NCBI RefSeq assembly: GCF_013122565.1
Contig: NZ_CP053258.1
Strand: one strand, 5' to 3'
Length of the DNA: 64,000 nt
Origin: Escherichia coli
GTDB taxonomy: Bacteria > Pseudomonadota > Gammaproteobacteria > Enterobacterales > Enterobacteriaceae
Numbering within the stretch: position 1 is the first letter of the stretch; each line of letters opens with the position of its first letter. A program made the position numbers and the translations under genes. Positions 22,018 through 32,209 of the stretch are shown here, piece after piece. Below the pieces are notes generated by a model. That model saw nothing but the letters and a program-made list of their open reading frames with translations, was not told the origin of the DNA and made no database searches.

Positions 22018-24060
22018 ATGGATGATAAACAAATTACGGTCTGGCTTAAACACAATTGCTGTTCAACGGACATTCCTGCCATTGCCGAGGCACTAACGAA
22101 CCATGCAGAATGGCTTTTAGAGCTAGCGCCAGATCCTATTGAACAAGGTAGTTCATGTTTACCGCCGACAGCTGCAGCCGGTATTTTTCTTGGCGCAGCG
22201 GCGATGGTTCACTGCGGCGAGGCTAGTGGTGCAGAAACCTGGCTCGAAGCAGCCATTACTGATTACCATTTCTTTAATCCAAATGGATATAGTTCATGGA
22301 GAGGCAGTACGCCTGTTTTTACAGCATTATCGCGTTACCCGGCATTAAGAATGGTGTTATTTAACGCCGCTTGCGCAATGGAAGACTGGAATAAAGCATC
22401 CGCTGTTCTTGAATCGCTTTTCCATGCCAGCGATGTCCCGGAAGATAACCCTGTCGCCCCAAATTTTACCCCTTATGCGCTGAAAGCGTTTATCGCGGAT
22501 TACCACCCGTTAGGACCAGCTCATTATGATGAAACCTGGTTGCTGGCAAAACAAGCGTGGTTAATTAATGCGAGCGTTCTGGATGAGCGAACCTGCAATA
22601 CCTGGAAGCAATATACCCGCCACTTGCGCCATTTGATCCACAATGCACAGTTTGCCGATGCGCTCTCTTTTGTACGCAGTAAAAAAGAACCGTTAAATCA
22701 TATCCATACCTACTCAGACTTTTATCTGTATGCGATTGGTTTATTTTCTTATACTGGTCAGCTAAATGAAGCGCTGACCTGGATAAAACAGTTAATCCAC
22801 AACAATGATGGTCATTTCTGTGATCTTTTCGTTTCAACTGGCAAAGAGCGCCGAATAAAGCCTGAACTTAGTACCTTGCTGAATAATCTCTTGCACAGCG
22901 CAGAGTTTCAGGCGTTGCAGGATAAATATCTCACCGTCGGACATGATGTTGTGCATTCTGGTCCCTTCATGTCAGTTTATGAAAAGGTTCTTGGCGGAAA
23001 GTCCCGAAAGCGCTGCGCGATTAGTCGAAAATTAATCTCGCCCGGCGAAGCGGTTTATGAATATCGTCAGCTGGATAGTGTGGCATATATTGCAGCGAAA
23101 GCGGCCTTTCAGGCATCTGCGCTAAATAATATCGCCCTCCGGCATACAAATGATAGTTATCAGTGGCAGGATTTTGCCGCCCAATGGCCTCGTCGGGGTG
23201 CGCTTTCTCACCCGGATATTGCCCGTTATATGTTTGAGCGCCAGAAAGGGAAATGTTTTGATGCCGCAGAGTTTATTCAACTGATTGCCGAACCGTTTGT
23301 CTTTCCGATGCGTTTCAGATGGGTTGCCGGGTTGTCCTTTGAATTACATCAGTACCCGGATGCCTATTTCGTAAATGACAATATGGCGGGTGAATTTGTT
23401 AATCTCTGCTGGATGGCTATAAAATGCGGACATGCTGGCGACATTTTTAAACAACTGGCGAAGGAGTCGCATGACGTTGCCGACCCTATTTACGCTATGC
23501 TCGCCACGTTTGACCGCGCTGATTGCCGCAGCGCTGCCGCCGCGCACTTTGGACGACCGGAGCTTGCGGAAATAATGGCGCTGGCTTTCAGTTCGAGGTT
23601 ATCGCTCGACAGCGTCCTTACCATCGCTGAGTTTGGTAAAAATCAGCCGCGCTTTTCACATGCGTTGGCAACGGCCCTCCTGCGTTACAACCTGCACATC
23701 TACTCAAACTATATGCCGCAGGTTAACTGGTTCCTTCAGGGGCTGGAACACTATGCTTTGGCAAAAGGCGGTCAACTTTTAAATTTCTTTGTGCATATTC
23801 CAGAACAAATTCCCGTTCTGGCGACCATGCTGGAACATGGCGTATTAGTGCGTGGGATCGGTGAAGGTGCCTATGATGGTTATGATAATTCAGCAAATTC
23901 ATTTCATCATGCCGCCGTGATGCACTGCCTCACGCACGCGCCGGAAAAAGTTCGCTACTGGATGGAAACACCCTGGATTCAGAACTATTTAGTGAATGCG
24001 CCGCTGCGTCAAACGGCGCGCCATGTGGAAGCCTGGCATAAAAAGTTTGGCATCAAATGA
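22018..24060 (+). CDS. Uncharacterised protein of about 680 aa (698 aa from the TTG at 21964); strain-variable insertion between tpx and tyrR
   Basis: Single uninterrupted 2.1 kb ORF; likely start ATG 22018 (GGAG at 22002-22005) or ATG 22009; no recognisable Walker A, TM segment or signal peptide by eye; His/Ala/Leu-rich, presumably alpha-helical; not matched to any family I recognise. Confidence 0.7.
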   Translation: MDDKQITVWLKHNCCSTDIPAIAEALTNHAEWLLELAPDPIEQGSSCLPPTAAAGIFLGAAAMVHCGEASGAETWLEAAITDYHFFNPNGYSSWRGSTPVFTALSRYPALRMVLFNAACAMEDWNKASAVLESLFHASDVPEDNPVAPNFTPYALKAFIADYHPLGPAHYDETWLLAKQAWLINASVLDERTCNTWKQYTRHLRHLIHNAQFADALSFVRSKKEPLNHIHTYSDFYLYAIGLFSYTGQLNEALTWIKQLIHNNDGHFCDLFVSTGKERRIKPELSTLLNNLLHSAEFQALQDKYLTVGHDVVHSGPFMSVYEKVLGGKSRKRCAISRKLISPGEAVYEYRQLDSVAYIAAKAAFQASALNNIALRHTNDSYQWQDFAAQWPRRGALSHPDIARYMFERQKGKCFDAAEFIQLIAEPFVFPMRFRWVAGLSFELHQYPDAYFVNDNMAGEFVNLCWMAIKCGHAGDIFKQLAKESHDVADPIYAMLATFDRADCRSAAAAHFGRPELAEIMALAFSSRLSLDSVLTIAEFGKNQPRFSHALATALLRYNLHIYSNYMPQVNWFLQGLEHYALAKGGQLLNFFVHIPEQIPVLATMLEHGVLVRGIGEGAYDGYDNSANSFHHAAVMHCLTHAPEKVRYWMETPWIQNYLVNAPLRQTARHVEAWHKKFGIK

Positions 24061-24097
24061 ACGTTGCCGCTGCGCCTGAACGGCGCAGCCAGCACAA

Positions 24098-25639
24098 TCA
24101 CTCTTCGCTTTTCTTCTGGTTTAAGCCATATTCCCGCAACTTATTGGCAATCGCGGTATGTGAAACACCGAGACGTTTTGCCAGTTTGCGCGTGCTGGGA
24201 TAATTGCGATAAAGCTGAGTTAATACCGAGCGTTCAAAACGGCTGGTAATTTCGTCCAGCGAACCTTCCATCGCATCTTCGCCCACGGCTACCGTTGCGG
24301 CGTCATAATCAGGCAACAAAATATCCTGAGGACGCAGCTCATAACCGTCCAGTTGTGTCAGTGCGCGATAGATAGCGTTCTTTAACTGCCGCACATTTCC
24401 CGGCCACGCATAACGCGTAAGTACAGTATTCAGGTCAGCGGCCAGTTTCGGACGCGGCACGCCCTGCTCGTCGGCAAAGCGGGCGACGAACAGCTCAGTT
24501 AACGGCATGATGTCCTGCGGACAGTCACGTAGCGGTGGCAGATTGAGCGTCAACACGTTCAGACGATAATAGAGATCTTCACGGAACATGCCTTTTTGCA
24601 CCAGTTCGACCAGATTTTTCTGCGTAGCGCAAATCACCCGCACATCGACATGCACCTCATGGTCTTCGCCAACCCGACGGAAAGTGCCATCATTAAGGAA
24701 ACGCAGTAATTTCGCCTGCATCCGTGGTGACATTTCCCCTATTTCATCCAACAGCACCGAACCACCGTTCGCCTGCTCAAAGAATCCTTTCTTCCCTTCC
24801 GGAGCATGACCAAACAGTTCACTCTCGACCGCATCTTCCGGTATAGACGCACAGTTCAGCGCCAGGTAAGGTTTGCCCGCTCTGGGGCTTGCCTGATGGC
24901 AGGCGTAGGCAAAGAGATCTTTACCTGTACCTGTGTCACCCGTAATCAGCAGCGGCGCGCTTAGCATCGCCAGTTTCTGCGCCTGTTCGACAACGTGCTT
25001 CATTTTCGGGCTGACGGCGACAATTTGACTGAAGGCGCTGACGTCCTGGGCGGCGACATTTTGCAACTGGCGGCCCATACGAATCGTTGATCGCAACATC
25101 ACCACCGCACCGGTCAGGACGTGTTGAGCATTTTCATCCTGAAGATAAACAGGCGTAATCTCCATCAGGAAATTCTGCCCATTAATAACGACATGCTCGT
25201 TATGCGAATCTTGCGGTTCGCTTTCCAGCCAACGTAAAAAATTAAAGCCGTTAATCAATTGTGCGGCGGTATGGTTGCGCAGGCGATCCAATTTTTGCCC
25301 AAAAAGCTGACAGCTCGCCGGGTTCGCCATATCCACTTTGCTTTTCATATCGACAGAGAGCACAGGTTCGGGCAACGCCTCCAGTAACGCGCTCAACGCC
25401 AGATGCTCACGTTCGGAAGGCATCCACGGGACAGTACGCACATCGGTAACACCTGCAATACGGCGTATTTCGGCCATCAGACTGCTGAAACTCTCAAACT
25501 CCAGTTCAGCAAAATTGAGGTAGATTCGCCCAATGGGATCAATCTCAATACCGCGTAAATCAATGCCTCTTAGCACGAGTAGATCGAGTAATTCGCGGGT
25601 CAGACCGAGTCGGTCTTCACAAAAGACTTCCAGACGCAT
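24098..25639 (-). CDS. tyrR: Transcriptional regulator TyrR (513 aa)
   Basis: ACT/PAS N-terminus, sigma54-interaction-type AAA+ domain with GDTGTGKD, C-terminal HTH; start at MRLEVFCEDRLG. Confidence 0.93.
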   Translation of the reverse strand: MRLEVFCEDRLGLTRELLDLLVLRGIDLRGIEIDPIGRIYLNFAELEFESFSSLMAEIRRIAGVTDVRTVPWMPSEREHLALSALLEALPEPVLSVDMKSKVDMANPASCQLFGQKLDRLRNHTAAQLINGFNFLRWLESEPQDSHNEHVVINGQNFLMEITPVYLQDENAQHVLTGAVVMLRSTIRMGRQLQNVAAQDVSAFSQIVAVSPKMKHVVEQAQKLAMLSAPLLITGDTGTGKDLFAYACHQASPRAGKPYLALNCASIPEDAVESELFGHAPEGKKGFFEQANGGSVLLDEIGEMSPRMQAKLLRFLNDGTFRRVGEDHEVHVDVRVICATQKNLVELVQKGMFREDLYYRLNVLTLNLPPLRDCPQDIMPLTELFVARFADEQGVPRPKLAADLNTVLTRYAWPGNVRQLKNAIYRALTQLDGYELRPQDILLPDYDAATVAVGEDAMEGSLDEITSRFERSVLTQLYRNYPSTRKLAKRLGVSHTAIANKLREYGLNQKKSEE

Positions 25640-25709
25640 GGGAACCTTCACCTGAAAAAAGAACAATTAATATGATGATATGACACTATTTGAATAGCAG
25701 GAAGGTTTC

Positions 25710-25727
25710 TGTCAACAATCATTGACA
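25710..25727. promoter_or_regulatory. Candidate TyrR box in tyrR promoter region
   Basis: Palindrome tgtcaacaatcattgaca fits TGTAAA-N6-TTTACA class with conserved G-N14-C spacing, about 70 nt upstream of tyrR start. Confidence 0.4.
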
Positions 25728-25786
25728 CAAAGACGGAAAAACGGGCACTTCGGCGTAAAGATATCCGGTCAGCACCCGATATTGCA

Positions 25787-26848
25787 TTATTTTTCGCTGG
25801 GCGTTTTGCCTTTTTGCAGCGTTTCTTTCACCTGACCGATAAGCTGACGACGGAAATCCCCAAGGCGAGGTTTGTCATCGTCAATCCACGGCAGCGGGCG
25901 GCAAAGCTCCATAGCTTTAATCCCGAGTCGTGCCGTCAGAAGTCCAGCACCAATTCCCTGAGCTGCGCGGGTAGACAAACGAGCAGCGAGATCTTGCGAC
26001 ATCCAGTCCATCCCCACTTCGCGCACCAGTTCGCTGGCTCCGGCGAAAGCGATATTCAGCAATACCAGCTTGAACAGGCGCAAACGGCTGTAATACCCCA
26101 GTTCAATGCCATACAGCGTGGCGATGCGATTAATCAAACGCAGATTGCGCCAGGCGATAAATGCCATATCCACTAGCGCCAGCGGGCTGACCGCAATCAT
26201 CAACGTTGATTCCGCTGCCGAACGGCTGATTTCGCGCCGCGCCTGGGCATCTAAAACTGGCTGGACCAAATGCGCATACAAACTGACCACTTCACGGTCG
26301 TTTTGCGTTTCATGGATTGAGGCATACCAGCGTTGCAGCGCCGGATGTGACTGATCGATGCCCGCCTTCTGCGCCAGTTTTTCGCAAAATGCGCGGCCTT
26401 TGCCGGTTCCGTGGCTATGCAATAAATCACGCGCTTCGTCGCGTTCATGGGCGCGCTGTCGCAAGCGCCATAAGCGCCGCCACTCTGTTACCACGGAACC
26501 TACGCCAGCGCCGATAATCAATGCCCCAGCGGCACATCCACCCAGCGCTACCCAGTCCTGGGTTTGCCAGGCATTCATTGTCCACTGTATACCCTGCCCG
26601 ACAACGCTTGCGCCAAACAGAGCCAGCCCGCCCATCACCATTTTGCGCCACAGGCTGCGTTTCGGACGTAACGCTGCGTCCATTACCGCTTCGACTTGCC
26701 CCTCTTCTTCCTGCGCTTCATCGAGCGTGGCCGGGGCAAAATTTTGCGCCTGATTTTCGTCAAAGGTCTGCTGCGCCCTGAATTTTGGATTCTGATCGAC
26801 CTCCAGCGGACCGTCGAAATCAATACGTGGTTTTAACGGTTCGGTCAT
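25787..26848 (-). CDS. ycjF: Inner-membrane protein YcjF (UPF0283/DUF697, 353 aa)
   Basis: Internal hydrophobic segments; start overlaps ycjX stop by 4 nt (ATGA). Confidence 0.85.
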
Positions 26849-28242
26849 CGCAATTTATCTCCTATTAAAAATTCCAGCGCAGCATCAAGACGAATATGCG
26901 GTAGTGGTTTGTCGACATCCATCACCTGCGGACGAAATGCCTCAAACTGGAAGCCTTGCTTATCCCAGAACGCCTGACCAGGCAAACGTGCGGGAACTTC
27001 GCCAGGATAAACAGTGAGCGGTGCGCCATCGCTGAGTCGATTACCGCGCAGCGCCGGGATTTTCTCACCGTTAACATCAATAATGCCGCTGGTGGTCGCC
27101 TGAACTGACGCCAGCCCCAGGCAGTCCATGCTGATCCCTTCGAACGCCGCATTTTGCCAGGCATCCTGAATCAGTTGTTGCAGTAATGAAACCATATTAG
27201 CGTGCTGATCGATGGTCACATGGTCCGCTTTAGTAGCAGCAAACAATAGCTTATCGATAACCGGCGAAAACAAACGCCGGAACAGGGTACGCTGCCCGTA
27301 GTGAAAACTTTGCATCAGCTGCGTCAGCGCCAGACGCATATCATTAAATGCCTGTGGCCCACTGTTGAGAGGTTGCAGGCAGTCCACCAGCACAATCTGG
27401 CGGTCAAAGCGCAGAAAATGATTCTTATAGAACCCCTTCACCACCTTCTCGCAATAATAATTAAAGCGCTCGCGCAGCATTCCGGCATTGGTATGCTTGT
27501 CGGCCTGCGCCAGTTTGGACTCACCCCAGACATCGACATCCGGCCACGGGAAGAATTGCAGCGCGGGCGCACCTGCCATATCTCCCGGCAAGACAAAGCG
27601 CCCAGGCTGAATAAAGTGCAGCCCCTGCTGTTTACAGTGGTGGAGATAATCAGTCCAGGCGGTGGCAATGTCTGCCAGCCGGTTTTCGTCGGCAGGCGCT
27701 AGCGGGTCCAGCCCTTCGCACATCATTCGCCATTTCGCCGACCACACGCCGCGCTGACCATTGAGTAAGCCCGTCATCTGGCGCGACCAGCTTAAATAGT
27801 CCTGCGCCAGCATCGGCAGGTCGAGCAACCATTCGCCGGGATAATCCACAATCTCCAGATACAGCGTGGAGGTGTCCTTAAAGTGGCGTAGCAGCGAATC
27901 GTTCGATTTAAAACGTAACGCCAGGCGAATTTCGCTGACGCCGCGCGTTGGCGTTGGCCAGGCGGGTGGATTGCCGTACAGCTGCGCCAGCCCTTCATCA
28001 TAGGTGAAGCGCGGAATGCCAAAGTCACGCTGGGGAATGCGTTTTACGCCCAGCAGGCGCTCTTCACGCACCGCGCTTAACAGCGGCAAACGTGCTCCGG
28101 CGTGAATATTGAGCAACTGATTGACCATCGCAGTGATAAACGCCGTTTTGCCGCTGCGGCTAAGTCCGGTTACGGCGAGGCGCAGATGTCTGTCGACACC
28201 CCGATTCACCAGCGCATTAAGTTCATTTTTAAGTCGCTTCAT
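26845..28242 (-). CDS. ycjX: P-loop NTPase YcjX (DUF463, 465 aa)
   Basis: Walker A GLSRSGKT near N-terminus; start at [12 protein letters not shown] (ORF track extension to 28368 rejected). Confidence 0.85.
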
Positions 28243-28394
28243 TGCTGTCCTGTGCTGCTCTGAAGACCAGAAAAACATGTGTAAGGATACAAATGTGGGG
28301 GCCATGCCATTGATTATCAACTGGCCCGTGTTGTCATCCACGGACGAACTCCATAAGATGTGCACCATTCACGTTCGGACGGAGTTCCTTATCT

Positions 28395-29393
28395 ATGTCC
28401 CCTACTATTTATGATATCGCCAGGGTTGCGGGCGTATCAAAATCTACCGTATCACGCGTGCTGAATAAGCAAACTAATATCTCCCCGGAAGCGCGCGAAA
28501 AAGTGTTACGGGCCATTGAAGAATTAGAGTATCAACCAAACAAGCTGGCCCGTGCGCTCACCTCTTCCGGTTTTGATGCGATTATGGTTATTTCTACCCG
28601 TTCCACGAAAACCACGGCGGGTAATCCTTTTTTCTCTGAAGTTCTACATGCCATCACCGCCAAAGCTGAAGAAGAAGGTTTCGACGTGATATTGCAAACG
28701 TCGCACAATCCTGCGGAAGACTTACAAAAATGTGAAAGCAAAATTAAGCAGAAAATGATTAAAGGCATTATTATGCTAAGTTCGCCAGCGGATGAGTCAT
28801 TTTTTGCCCAACTCGATAAATACGATATTCCGGTGGTGGTAATTGGCAAAGTTGAAGGTCAATATGCCCATGTTTATTCTGTCGATACCGATAATTTTGG
28901 CGACAGCATTGCGCTAACCGATGCGTTAATTGAAAGTGGGCATCAAAATATTGCCTGCCTTCATGCACCGCTTGATGTCCATGTTTCGGTTGATCGGGTT
29001 AATGGTTATAAGCAGAGTCTGGAAGATCATAATATTGCAGTGCGTGATGAATGGATCGTTGATGGCGGTTATACCCATGAAACAGCACTGCAAGCAGCAC
29101 GGCAATTATTAAGTCAGTCACCGTTGCCAGAAGCCGTATTTGCCACTGACAGTCTGAAATTAATGAGTATTTATCGTGCGGCGGCAGAGAAAAATATTGC
29201 TATTCCGCAGCAGTTAGCGGTGGTGGGTTATAGTAATGAAACGCTGTCGTTTATTTTAACGCCTGCACCAGGCGGCATCGATGTCCCGACGCAGGAGTTA
29301 GGGCAACAAAGCTGTGAGTTATTATTCCGCTTAATTGCCGGAAAACCGTCACCACAAAATATTACCGTTGCCACGCATATGACGCTGAAATAA
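28395..29393 (+). CDS. ycjW: LacI-family transcriptional regulator YcjW (332 aa)
   Basis: N-terminal Lac[25 protein letters not shown] and periplasmic-binding-protein-like sugar-binding domain. Confidence 0.9.
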
Positions 29394-29415
29394 ATACCAG
29401 CTACCTTGCCTGAAT

Positions 29416-29489
29416 GCCGGATGCGATGCTGGCGCATCTTATCCGGCCTACATTTATAGACCGGATAAAGTACTCGCGCCGCATCCGGC
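29416..29489. repeat. Pair of REP palindromes (BIME-like) between ycjW and ompG
   Basis: gccggatgcgatgctggcgcatcttatccggc and gaccggataaagtactcgcgccgcatccggc in inverted orientation. Confidence 0.65.
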
Positions 29490-29503
29490 AATTTAACCCA
29501 TTA

Positions 29504-30409
29504 TCAGAACGAGTAATTTACGCCGACACCTGCATAATGGAATTTATCGCTGTCGCCTTCGTCGTGATTCTGCCACTCAAACGCGTATTCCAGCGAAACG
29601 GAAAGTCCGTTCTGGAAATCATAACCGTAAAATAAACCCACACGGTTAAAATCATGGCCTTCACGTTCAATATCATCCTGCCAGTCCCAGTTACTCCAGC
29701 GATCCAGCCCAATGCGTGTATACGGCGTCACCGAGTGGTTGCCGAGCGTCAGCGGCAAATAGGCGCGAATTTCTTGCGTGGAAAACTCACCGTTATTGCG
29801 GCTGTCGTCCATATTGAAGCCGCGCTCGAGATAATAGTTCACTCGCAAAGCAACCGTTTCGTTGAAGGTATATTGCAGACCTGTTTCCGTTTCTACACGG
29901 GTATCAGCGTAACCGGTCGTGTCCAGATCGTTGGCAAATTTATACATCGACAACCAACCGTTGAAACGTAAATCGTCAGTCAGTTTCACATCCCAGTCTG
30001 GCGCGATTTTCCAGCGCTGCATATTCGCCGTGTCTTTACCCGGTTCATCAACGTAGTGATAACCATAATTACGGAAACCGCCGGTCAGGCCGAAACTGAA
30101 ATCATCGCTTTCGAGGAACTGATAATGCACCTCCAGCTCCGGGCGATCAAACCACGTTCCACGTTTACCCGCGCTATAATCTACCGGCCCTTCCTGATAA
30201 TAGGCCAAAGAAATTCTCCACGGCCCGTTGGCAGCATTAAAATAGACAGAAGGCTCCGCCAGCCCATCCATATCTTCGCCATAACCCTCGACGTTTTCTA
30301 TTTCGTACATCGCGCCGATATTAAAGTGCCAGTCATTCTTTTCCTCTGCCTGTGCGCAGGCCATTCCCGCACACATCACCAGTGCGGTACAGGGTAATAA
30401 CTTTTTCAT
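29504..30409 (-). CDS. ompG: Outer membrane porin OmpG (301 aa)
   Basis: Signal peptide MKKLLPCTALVMCAGMACAQA, beta-barrel with C-terminal ...NYSF. Confidence 0.9.
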   Translation of the reverse strand: MKKLLPCTALVMCAGMACAQAEEKNDWHFNIGAMYEIENVEGYGEDMDGLAEPSVYFNAANGPWRISLAYYQEGPVDYSAGKRGTWFDRPELEVHYQFLESDDFSFGLTGGFRNYGYHYVDEPGKDTANMQRWKIAPDWDVKLTDDLRFNGWLSMYKFANDLDTTGYADTRVETETGLQYTFNETVALRVNYYLERGFNMDDSRNNGEFSTQEIRAYLPLTLGNHSVTPYTRIGLDRWSNWDWQDDIEREGHDFNRVGLFYGYDFQNGLSVSLEYAFEWQNHDEGDSDKFHYAGVGVNYSF

Positions 30410-30453
30410 TATTGTTCCTTGTATTATCCTGGGGGAATGCCTTCCCCCTGTAT

Positions 30454-31536
30454 TTAGCGAATTGCTATTTCCGTTTCTGCATCAAAGAAATGACATTTAG
30501 TCATATCAAAATGAATAGTGATATTTTCTCCTGCATGATAATCATTCAACGCACCAGCACGGACCACTAACTCGTGCCCCCCAACCGTGGTGTAGAGCAT
30601 AAATTCCGCACCGGTTAATTCTGCCACGCTAATTTTGGCGGAAATCTTATTTTCCTCTTGCGCGTCCGGATGAATATCTTCCGGGCGTATTCCCATCACG
30701 ATGGGCTTATGCAAACTTTCCTGTGTTTTCAGAACCGCTAATTTCTCTTCGGGAATGGTTAATTTAAGCGTTTCCGTAACGAATTTATCGCCATCGATCG
30801 TGCCACGAATAAAATTCATCGCCGGTGATCCAATAAATCCGGCAACAAACATATTCGCTGGTTGGTTATAAACCGTTTTCGGCGCACCAACTTGCTGAAC
30901 AATCCCATCCTTCATAATCACAATCCGCGTCGCCATGGTCATCGCTTCGGTCTGATCGTGGGTCACGTAGATCATGGTGGTATTCAGCTTCTGGTGCAGC
31001 TTGCTGATCTCTGCGCGCATTTGCACGCGCAGCTTGGCATCAAGGTTAGAGAGCGGTTCATCCATTAAAAACACGCCCGCTTCGCGCACAATCGCCCGCC
31101 CGAGCGCCACACGCTGGCGTTGCCCGCCGGAAAGCGCGCCCGGCTTGCGTTTCAGGTACTCTCGCAGGCCGAGAATTTGCGCCGCCCAGTTCACCCGCTC
31201 ATCAATCACCTCTTTGGCGATTTTTTGCATCTTCAGGCCAAACGCCATGTTGTCGTAGACCGTCATATGCGGATACAGCGCATAGTTCTGGAACACCATC
31301 GCGATATTGCGCTCTTTAGCCGGAACGTCATTCATTCGTTTGCCGTCGATCAACAGATCGCCGCCGCTGATCTCCTCAAGCCCGGCAATCATGCGAAGGG
31401 TGGTCGACTTACCGCAGCCTGACGGGCCGACAAACACGATGAACTCTTTATCGGCAATTTCCAGGTTGAAGTCCTTCACCACATGCACCTGGTTATCGTA
31501 GATTTTTTGAATATGTTGTAACGAAAGCTGTGCCAT
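30454..31536 (-). CDS. ycjV: ABC transporter ATP-binding protein, MalK-like, apparently intact (360 aa)
   Basis: Walker A GPSGCGKST, signature LSGGQRQR, Walker B FLMDEPLSNLD, C-terminal regulatory domain. Confidence 0.88.
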   Translation of the reverse strand: MAQLSLQHIQKIYDNQVHVVKDFNLEIADKEFIVFVGPSGCGKSTTLRMIAGLEEISGGDLLIDGKRMNDVPAKERNIAMVFQNYALYPHMTVYDNMAFGLKMQKIAKEVIDERVNWAAQILGLREYLKRKPGALSGGQRQRVALGRAIVREAGVFLMDEPLSNLDAKLRVQMRAEISKLHQKLNTTMIYVTHDQTEAMTMATRIVIMKDGIVQQVGAPKTVYNQPANMFVAGFIGSPAMNFIRGTIDGDKFVTETLKLTIPEEKLAVLKTQESLHKPIVMGIRPEDIHPDAQEENKISAKISVAELTGAEFMLYTTVGGHELVVRAGALNDYHAGENITIHFDMTKCHFFDAETEIAIR

Positions 31537-31549
31537 GTTGATTCCTTTG

Positions 31550-32209
31550 CTATACGTTTTGCCAGAAGGCCGATAACCGCGGCCAGGTCAGGGAGTCCGT
31601 TGAGGGCAACAGTAATTGCGCCCCGGTTAAGCCCGCGCCGATCCCCACCGAGCGCATACCGCTGGCGTTAATGGCGTCAATGCCCGCCTGCGCATCTTCA
31701 ATGCCGATACATGCCTGCGGCGGCACGCCCAGCCCGGCACAGGCAGCGAGAAAGATTTCCGGATCCGGTTTCGAGTTTTTAAGTTGGGAAGCATCCGCGC
31801 AGAAGGTGAAAAACTCGCGCAGCTCCAGCGCCGCTAAAATCGTCGGCGCATTCAGGGAGACGGAAGCCAGCCCTACCGGAATCTGCTGTGCACGGAGCTC
31901 TGCCAGCAAATTGCGAATACCGGGCAGCACAGCATTAACCGTCAGCTCGCGCAGTGAGTGGACGTAAAGCAGATTTTTGCGATACGCCAGTTGCGCCCGC
32001 TCCTGCGGGTTAAAGTCGCCCTCTTTGCCCCCGTGTTGCAGAATGCGCCGCAGAGACTCATCGCGGCTGATCCCTTTTAGGGATTCGTTAAACTGCGCAT
32101 CAATGCTGATGCCAATTTCAGCGGCAATCTGCTGCCACGCCTGGAAATGCAGATGCGCGGTATCGGTGATTACACCATCCAGATCGAAAATTACCCCTTG
32201 CAGTTTCAT
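31550..32209 (-). CDS. ycjU: Beta-phosphoglucomutase, HAD superfamily (219 aa)
   Basis: HAD motif [11 protein letters not shown] at N-terminus. Confidence 0.9.

Follow-up and report, generated by a model that had tools for sequence, protein, structure and literature searches.

The closest described counterpart of the gene considered here is full-length E. coli YcjV (WP_000057985.1), a protein that accumulates, has been purified and hydrolyses ATP (Leisico et al, 2020; PMC7658222). It is 64% identical to B. subtilis MsmX, and the same study reported that YcjV was unable to replace MsmX in B. subtilis for AraNPQ or GanSPQ and that multitask ATPases of this kind carry a signature composed of D77, R104, E110 and K154. 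In E. coli, ycjV belongs to the ycjMNOPQRSTUV-ompG operon, which is repressed by YcjW, and chromatin immunoprecipitation sequencing (ChIP-seq) placed YcjW peaks before the ycjM translation start and between ycjT and ycjU (Luhachack et al; PMC6599011).

The laboratory strain carries a damaged copy of the gene. On the MG1655 chromosome (NC_000913), ycjV (b1318) and ymjB (b4524) are adjacent annotated pseudogenes, and the RefSeq K-12 record holds a single ycjV CDS labelled 'frameshifted'. The gene serves as a routine chromosomal integration site in K-12 engineering, as do ygaY, ilvG, yghX and ylbE. These last four are themselves K-12 pseudogenes. We found nothing relevant to ymjB in the literature.

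We analysed a stretch of E. coli DNA of 64 kb (the window), for which the first-pass annotation had described a full-length ycjV of 360 aa with all of the nucleotide-binding-domain motifs and a MalK-like C-terminal domain. Reading frame, motif and Pfam evidence agree with that description. The gene and the two segments within it that bear on the comparison with K-12 are located as follows.

30454..31536, minus strand: ycjV, intact 360-aa ATPase (nucleotide-binding) subunit of the MalK/UgpC/MsmX type
30577..30582, minus strand: G6 homopolymer, codons G319-G320; a 1-bp contraction here makes K-12 ycjV a pseudogene
30457..30576, minus strand: ycjV codons 321-360, counterpart of K-12 ymjB; 40 residues missing from the K-12 product

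The list of open reading frames contains a single frame at 30454..31536 on the minus strand, with an ATG start, a TAA end and 360 codons (1083 nt). Translation of this interval is open on the minus strand, while the plus strand is riddled with stops; no frameshift had been overlooked, since the minus-strand frame stays open from ATG to TAA. A ribosome-binding site (AAGGAA) lies 7-8 nt 5′ of the ATG, and 13 nt separate the ycjU stop from ycjV. All six ABC-ATPase motifs expected of a nucleotide-binding domain (PF00005) were found in the protein: Walker A (GPSGCGKS, residues 37-44), the Q-loop (Q83), the signature LSGGQ (residues 135-139), Walker B with its catalytic glutamate (VFLMDE, 155-160), the D-loop (SNLD, 163-166) and the H-loop (H193). 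Pfam assigned ABC_tran to residues 21-162 (E 7.8e-32; 111 bits against a cut-off of 25), followed by OB_MalK at 236-288 (54.7 bits) and TOBE_2 at 282-351 (39.6 bits), each of the latter two above its curated cut-off. An OB/TOBE regulatory domain thus follows the ATPase core, as in CUT1 ATPases of the MalK/UgpC/MsmX type, and two membrane subunits and a substrate-binding protein (ycjO, ycjP and ycjN, all intact and in the same strand block) are co-encoded with it, again as in CUT1 systems.

The best NCBIfam model for YcjV was the UgpC subfamily model NF008653, passed with 486.9 bits against a cut-off of 432; this is a subfamily model, not an equivalog, and it is silent on substrate. An assignment as MalK was rejected, the equivalog NF008233 giving 433.1 bits against a cut-off of 568. 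The nearest solved structure was B. subtilis MsmX (6yir; full length, E 5e-149), and the next PDB matches, also with full-length alignments, were AlgS, archaeal MalK, SugC and E. coli MalK, the last (1q12) aligned over YcjV residues 1-353 with E 9e-101. YcjV and MsmX have the ATPase core and the C-terminal OB/TOBE architecture in common. They differ in that YcjV is operon-encoded whereas MsmX is an orphan, in that none of the four charged signature residues is present in YcjV, which has N77, Q104, V110 and G154 at these positions of the 6yir alignment, and in that YcjV failed to rescue an msmX null mutant (PMC7658222). With E. coli MalK, the ATPase of the maltose importer, YcjV shares fold class, domain order and a match to the OB_MalK domain, but we saw no sign of control by MalT or EIIA-Glc. 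Its context is the ycj sugar operon and not ugpBAEC, which sets it apart from UgpC, the ATPase of the sn-glycerol-3-phosphate importer. Located between ycjU and ompG and near-identical to E. coli YcjV, the reading frame is very probably the wild-type E. coli ycjV orthologue, encoding the ATPase subunit of a carbohydrate ABC importer, YcjN-YcjOP-YcjV, that belongs to the MalK/UgpC/MsmX type.

The remainder of the locus is equally well preserved. YcjM to OmpG, together with YcjW, YcjX and YcjF, gave end-to-end gap-free tblastn matches to K-12 (96.8-99.7% aa identity), and an 18-kb K-12 segment is colinear with the window at 97.0% nt identity. Both results agree with the earlier claim of a complete 11-gene ycjMNOPQRSTUV-ompG locus, and the functions assigned to the genes there match the K-12 annotation. 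The other genes of the operon and its regulator are listed below, with aligned residues and aa identity to K-12 in brackets.

40461..42140, minus strand: ycjM, glucosylglycerate phosphorylase (559/559 aa, 96.8%; start from the K-12 alignment)
39155..40447, minus strand: ycjN, lipoprotein substrate-binding protein (430/430 aa, 99.5%; PMC11543891)
38253..39134, minus strand: ycjO, ABC transporter membrane subunit (293/293 aa, 99.7%)
37424..38266, minus strand: ycjP, ABC transporter membrane subunit (280/280 aa, 98.9%)
36341..37393, minus strand: ycjQ, D-guloside 3-dehydrogenase (350/350 aa, 99.4%)
35535..36323, minus strand: ycjR, 3-dehydro-D-guloside 4-epimerase (262/262 aa, 99.2%; start set by the K-12 alignment, the mechanical ORF reaching 36452)
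34470..35525, minus strand: ycjS, D-glucoside 3-dehydrogenase (351/351 aa, 99.1%)
32206..34473, minus strand: ycjT, kojibiose phosphorylase of family GH65 (755/755 aa, 97.9%)
31550..32209, minus strand: ycjU (pgmB), beta-phosphoglucomutase (219/219 aa, 97.7%)
29504..30409, minus strand: ompG, monomeric outer-membrane porin, at the end of the operon (301/301 aa, 98.3%)
28395..29393, plus strand: ycjW, LacI-family operon repressor (332/332 aa, 98.5%)

One element of the earlier description needs correction. It had called ycjW divergent from the operon, but the coordinates put ycjW (plus strand) tail-to-tail with ompG (minus strand), so that the two are convergent; in K-12, ycjW is divergent from ycjX only. 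Palindromes between ycjW and ompG are presumably of the REP type. The 44-nt spacer between ycjV and ompG contains a 7-bp GC-rich hairpin, GGGGGAAGGCATTCCCCC, at 30431..30448, with no T-run on the coding strand. The hairpin was flagged on the opposite strand by a terminator scan that performed no better than on shuffled sequence, and it may have a part in mRNA stability or processing.

Two putative YcjW operators were recognized in the window.

42153..42166, minus strand: YcjW operator copy 1, TGGGACCGCTACCA, 13 nt 5′ of the ycjM ATG
32226..32239, minus strand: YcjW operator copy 2, TGGGACCGCTACCA, 17 nt 5′ of the ycjU ATG and still within ycjT, at its 3′ end

The motif was spotted by eye as a CG-centred 14-mer and was deduced from its two-copy exact match: the imperfect palindrome, with CG at its centre, occurs exactly only these two times in the 64-kb window. 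A palindrome scan upstream of ycjM and ycjU (up to 2 mismatches) returned nothing, and consensus scans for promoters and terminators were no more productive than on shuffled sequence. Both positions match the published ChIP peaks (PMC6599011), as expected of the YcjW regulon, and both operators are conserved. The position of the second operator before ycjU suggests that ycjU-ycjV-ompG is under separate control.

Aligning the window gene with K-12 ycjV revealed 34 substitutions and only one indel. At gene nt 955-960 (window 30582-30577) the window reads GGTT-GGGGGG-CAC and K-12 reads GGTT-GGGGG-CAC; thus, the window has G6 instead of G5 and keeps the frame. Translation of K-12 ycjV ends ...TVGGTS-stop after 322 aa, such that the G6→G5 contraction yields a 322-aa product and the remnant ymjB. 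This pairwise alignment, which the first-pass annotation had proposed as a check, located the K-12 lesion and established that the K-12 copy is frameshifted and not equally intact; together with the K-12 annotation, the single indel supports the claim that K-12 ycjV is a pseudogene split from ymjB. Approximately the C-terminal half of TOBE_2 is dropped by the truncation. The extent of this domain loss was judged from Pfam limits and PDB sequence alignments; an AlphaFold2 model of YcjV made without an alignment had a mean pLDDT of 34 and was unusable for mapping the strands that K-12 loses.

The intact gene is widespread. Of 5426 complete E. coli genomes, 5006 matched a 1.4-kb query around ycjV; in 4978 the match extended over 80% or more of the query, and the 20-kb block from tyrR to ycjM was at least 80% covered in 4955. 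A 43-mer containing the G6 tract was found exactly in 4453 of the 5426 genomes, whereas the corresponding K-12 42-mer with G5 was found exactly in 370, and those G5 genomes that we sampled from different parts of the ranking derived from K-12 or laboratory strains (ER1709, a K-12 BZKR strain and records described as 'laboratory experiment' or 'lab stock'). At the protein level, the window and K-12 products fall into 90%-identity clusters of 3686 and 1750 member sequences, respectively, and 28 of the 30 members listed for both clusters are 360 aa long. All 15 listed members of the cluster containing the window YcjV are from E. coli; the 322-aa K-12 product, in the second cluster, is on record on at least 1000 contigs. 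The window protein itself already has a record, QJU24361.1 / WP_171459441.1, under the title 'ABC transporter ATP-binding protein [Escherichia coli]'. Any suggestion that an intact ycjV is special to this strain is therefore not supported, given these counts and the existing deposit. Intact ycjV is the ancestral and prevalent state in E. coli, with no special retention here, and its finding is correct but ordinary: the gene, the operon and the K-12 pseudogene were already known.

Around 420 of the 5426 complete genomes gave no match to the 1.4-kb query, indicating that the locus is absent or deleted in about 8%. In strain PI24, only the ompG edge of the ycjV region is left. Six matches to the region lie on records labelled as plasmids.

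The shortened tract also occurs outside K-12. Strain 08-00022, a non-K-12 isolate with a 5.2-Mb genome, has G5 in ycjV, with an annotated frameshift, and its gene differs from K-12 ycjV at five positions. A 261-nt query taken from this strain was 100% identical and of equal length in 16 genomes of human, cattle and wild-bird origin, and the next-ranked genomes listed for the same query carry the same haplotype one base longer, i.e. with G6. The non-K-12 gene with G5 corresponds to 561-1642 of the locus taken from NZ_CP013662. With K-12 on one side and at least 16 non-K-12 isolates with a distinct haplotype on the other, the G5 contraction is present on at least two haplotype backgrounds. This pattern suggests either that slippage recurs at the G tract or that the lesion is older than the domestication of K-12.

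Comparison of the window gene with a frameshift-repaired K-12 sequence gave 31 synonymous and 3 non-synonymous differences (pN/pS 0.028), and ycjV is under strong purifying selection. The three residue changes from the window to the repaired K-12 protein are E75A, A232S and K297N, leaving 357 of 360 aa identical. Relative to other sampled E. coli sequences the window YcjV shows 4-8 differences; it is the same gene as full-length E. coli YcjV, with the same length of 360 aa and in the same slot between ycjU and ompG, and differs from it by A75E and N297K, which are private to the window protein and absent from 27 other sampled full-length sequences. Position 75 is an aspartate in the MsmX alignment, so that E75 is compatible with the family. 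An exact-pattern scan of species-representative genomes found the gene solely in Escherichia sp. E1V33 and in a metagenome-assembled genome labelled Citrobacter sp., with matches at 92-96% nt identity; in these two, YcjV is intact at 360 aa and 99.2-99.4% identical, against DNA that is only about 95-96% identical.

The source of the window is an unusual E. coli lineage. The exact window YcjV protein is on record on two contigs only. Among the 5426 complete genomes, the best match to the 20 kb at 24000-44000 was the baboon strain PapRG-04-4 at 98.0%, with O55:H7/O157:H7 next. Away from the ycj operon, the window has, between tpx and tyrR, an orphan gene of 680 aa that is rare. Relative to K-12, about 2.4 kb with ymjC, ymjD, ycjY and the regulator gene pgrR is missing between mpaA and mppA (junction at 19448-19477), and there is no IS5F between ynaI and ynaJ (site at ~16574-16577). 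An origin in Shigella or in a species other than E. coli was rejected, as the DNA is deposited under E. coli and we noticed no insertion-sequence genes among the window ORFs examined. Rfam detected the small RNAs FnrS (4570-4687, minus strand, 134.8 bits) and McaS (8065-8160, plus strand, 118.4 bits) as its sole matches over the window, and there are no tRNA genes in the 64 kb.

By analogy with the family, a dimer of YcjV would sit under the YcjO/YcjP membrane pair and would be kept together by its C-terminal OB/TOBE domains. A glucoside would enter through OmpG in the outer membrane and be handed over by the lipoprotein YcjN, and the Walker A/B, signature, Q-loop and H-loop sites would bind and hydrolyse ATP to drive alternating access and import. 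Inside the cell, the phosphorylases YcjM and YcjT, the beta-phosphoglucomutase YcjU and the 3-keto-glycoside redox/epimerase enzymes YcjQRS would lead the sugar to glycolysis. YcjW, bound at two identical 14-bp operators before ycjM and before ycjU, would keep expression off. A single G6→G5 contraction at codons 319-320 strips the K-12 protein of its final 40 residues, about half of TOBE_2.

It is plausible that K-12 has lost an uptake function that this strain keeps and, because the intact state is prevalent, the same hypothesis would apply equally to about nine in ten of the E. coli genomes with this site. Kojibiose frees YcjW from DNA in vitro, yet minimal medium with kojibiose does not support growth of MG1655 (PMC6599011). 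The absence of growth fits a transport defect, and in the literature we found no link between it and ycjV. YcjN bound no sugar in a screen that included kojibiose, maltose and glucose but not glucosylglycerate, gulosides or 3-keto-glucosides (PMC11543891). Work from 2025 with K-12 and BL21 described YcjN-dependent, vanadate-sensitive uptake of maltose/glucoside (PMC13053599); if this uptake holds for K-12, then truncated YcjV or another ATPase suffices. Our literature search found no direct evidence of transport of a defined sugar by YcjNOP-V in a strain with intact ycjV. In addition, signature-tagged mutagenesis has been cited as tying the gene to cattle colonisation by EHEC (PMC8009128).

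Against a loss of function in K-12 stands the reading that the difference has no phenotype, either because the 322-aa product still works or because a paralogue (MalK, UgpC) energises YcjOP, in which case this strain would retain nothing that K-12 has lost. We consider this unlikely, although it has a real chance of being right. Residues 1-320 are spared by the frameshift, and with them all of the catalytic motifs and most of the regulatory domain; the uptake reported in PMC13053599 from work with K-12 and BL21 points the same way, and MalK-type ATPases are documented to cross-substitute in Firmicutes (PMC7658222). However, about half of TOBE_2 is lost, the 360-aa length is kept across thousands of sequences under strong purifying selection, NCBI and the MG1655 record both class the K-12 gene as a pseudogene, kojibiose as the sugar of a minimal medium does not let MG1655 grow (PMC6599011), and PMC13053599 does not clearly tie each assay to one strain. 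On C-terminal truncation of MalK, no direct evidence was found in the literature. A stronger form of the loss, in which the G6 tract is a recurrent natural off-switch, E. coli is polymorphic for the importer and the frameshift alone lies behind the failure of K-12 to grow on kojibiose, appears to us distinctly doubtful. If it were true, the frameshift would explain why the substrate of the operon eluded K-12-based work, and an MG1655 derivative without ycjW would, once its G6 was restored, grow on or take up kojibiose, glucosylglycerate or a guloside.

Were YcjV instead a shared multitask ATPase that energises several sugar importers like B. subtilis MsmX, the K-12 loss would reach beyond the ycj system. 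The full-length structural match to MsmX and the 64% identity speak for such a role, but YcjV is encoded within its own transporter operon, departs from the multitask signature at all four positions (N77, Q104, V110 and G154) and failed to stand in for MsmX with AraNPQ or GanSPQ (PMC7658222), which makes a shared function very improbable. Finally, the intact frame might be an assembly artefact in which an extra G arose from a homopolymer miscall. Long reads suffer indel errors most often at homopolymer runs. An independent SRA assembly nevertheless holds an identical 1083-nt ycjV, which excludes such a miscall, G6 is present in 4453 other complete genomes, and the frame 3′ of the G tract encodes the end of a conserved TOBE domain; we thus attach practically no weight to an artefact. 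The preferred reading remains a wild-type ycjV, whose loss from K-12 may have cost that strain an uptake function.

These observations bear on how the operon has been studied. Work on the 'YcjNOPV' transporter and on growth with kojibiose used K-12-derived material, in which the ATPase gene is frameshifted, and the parts of PMC13053599, PMC11543891 and PMC6599011 that were available to us make no mention of the K-12 ycjV frameshift. A strain like the one described here, or a repaired K-12, would be a better host for finding the true substrate of the operon.
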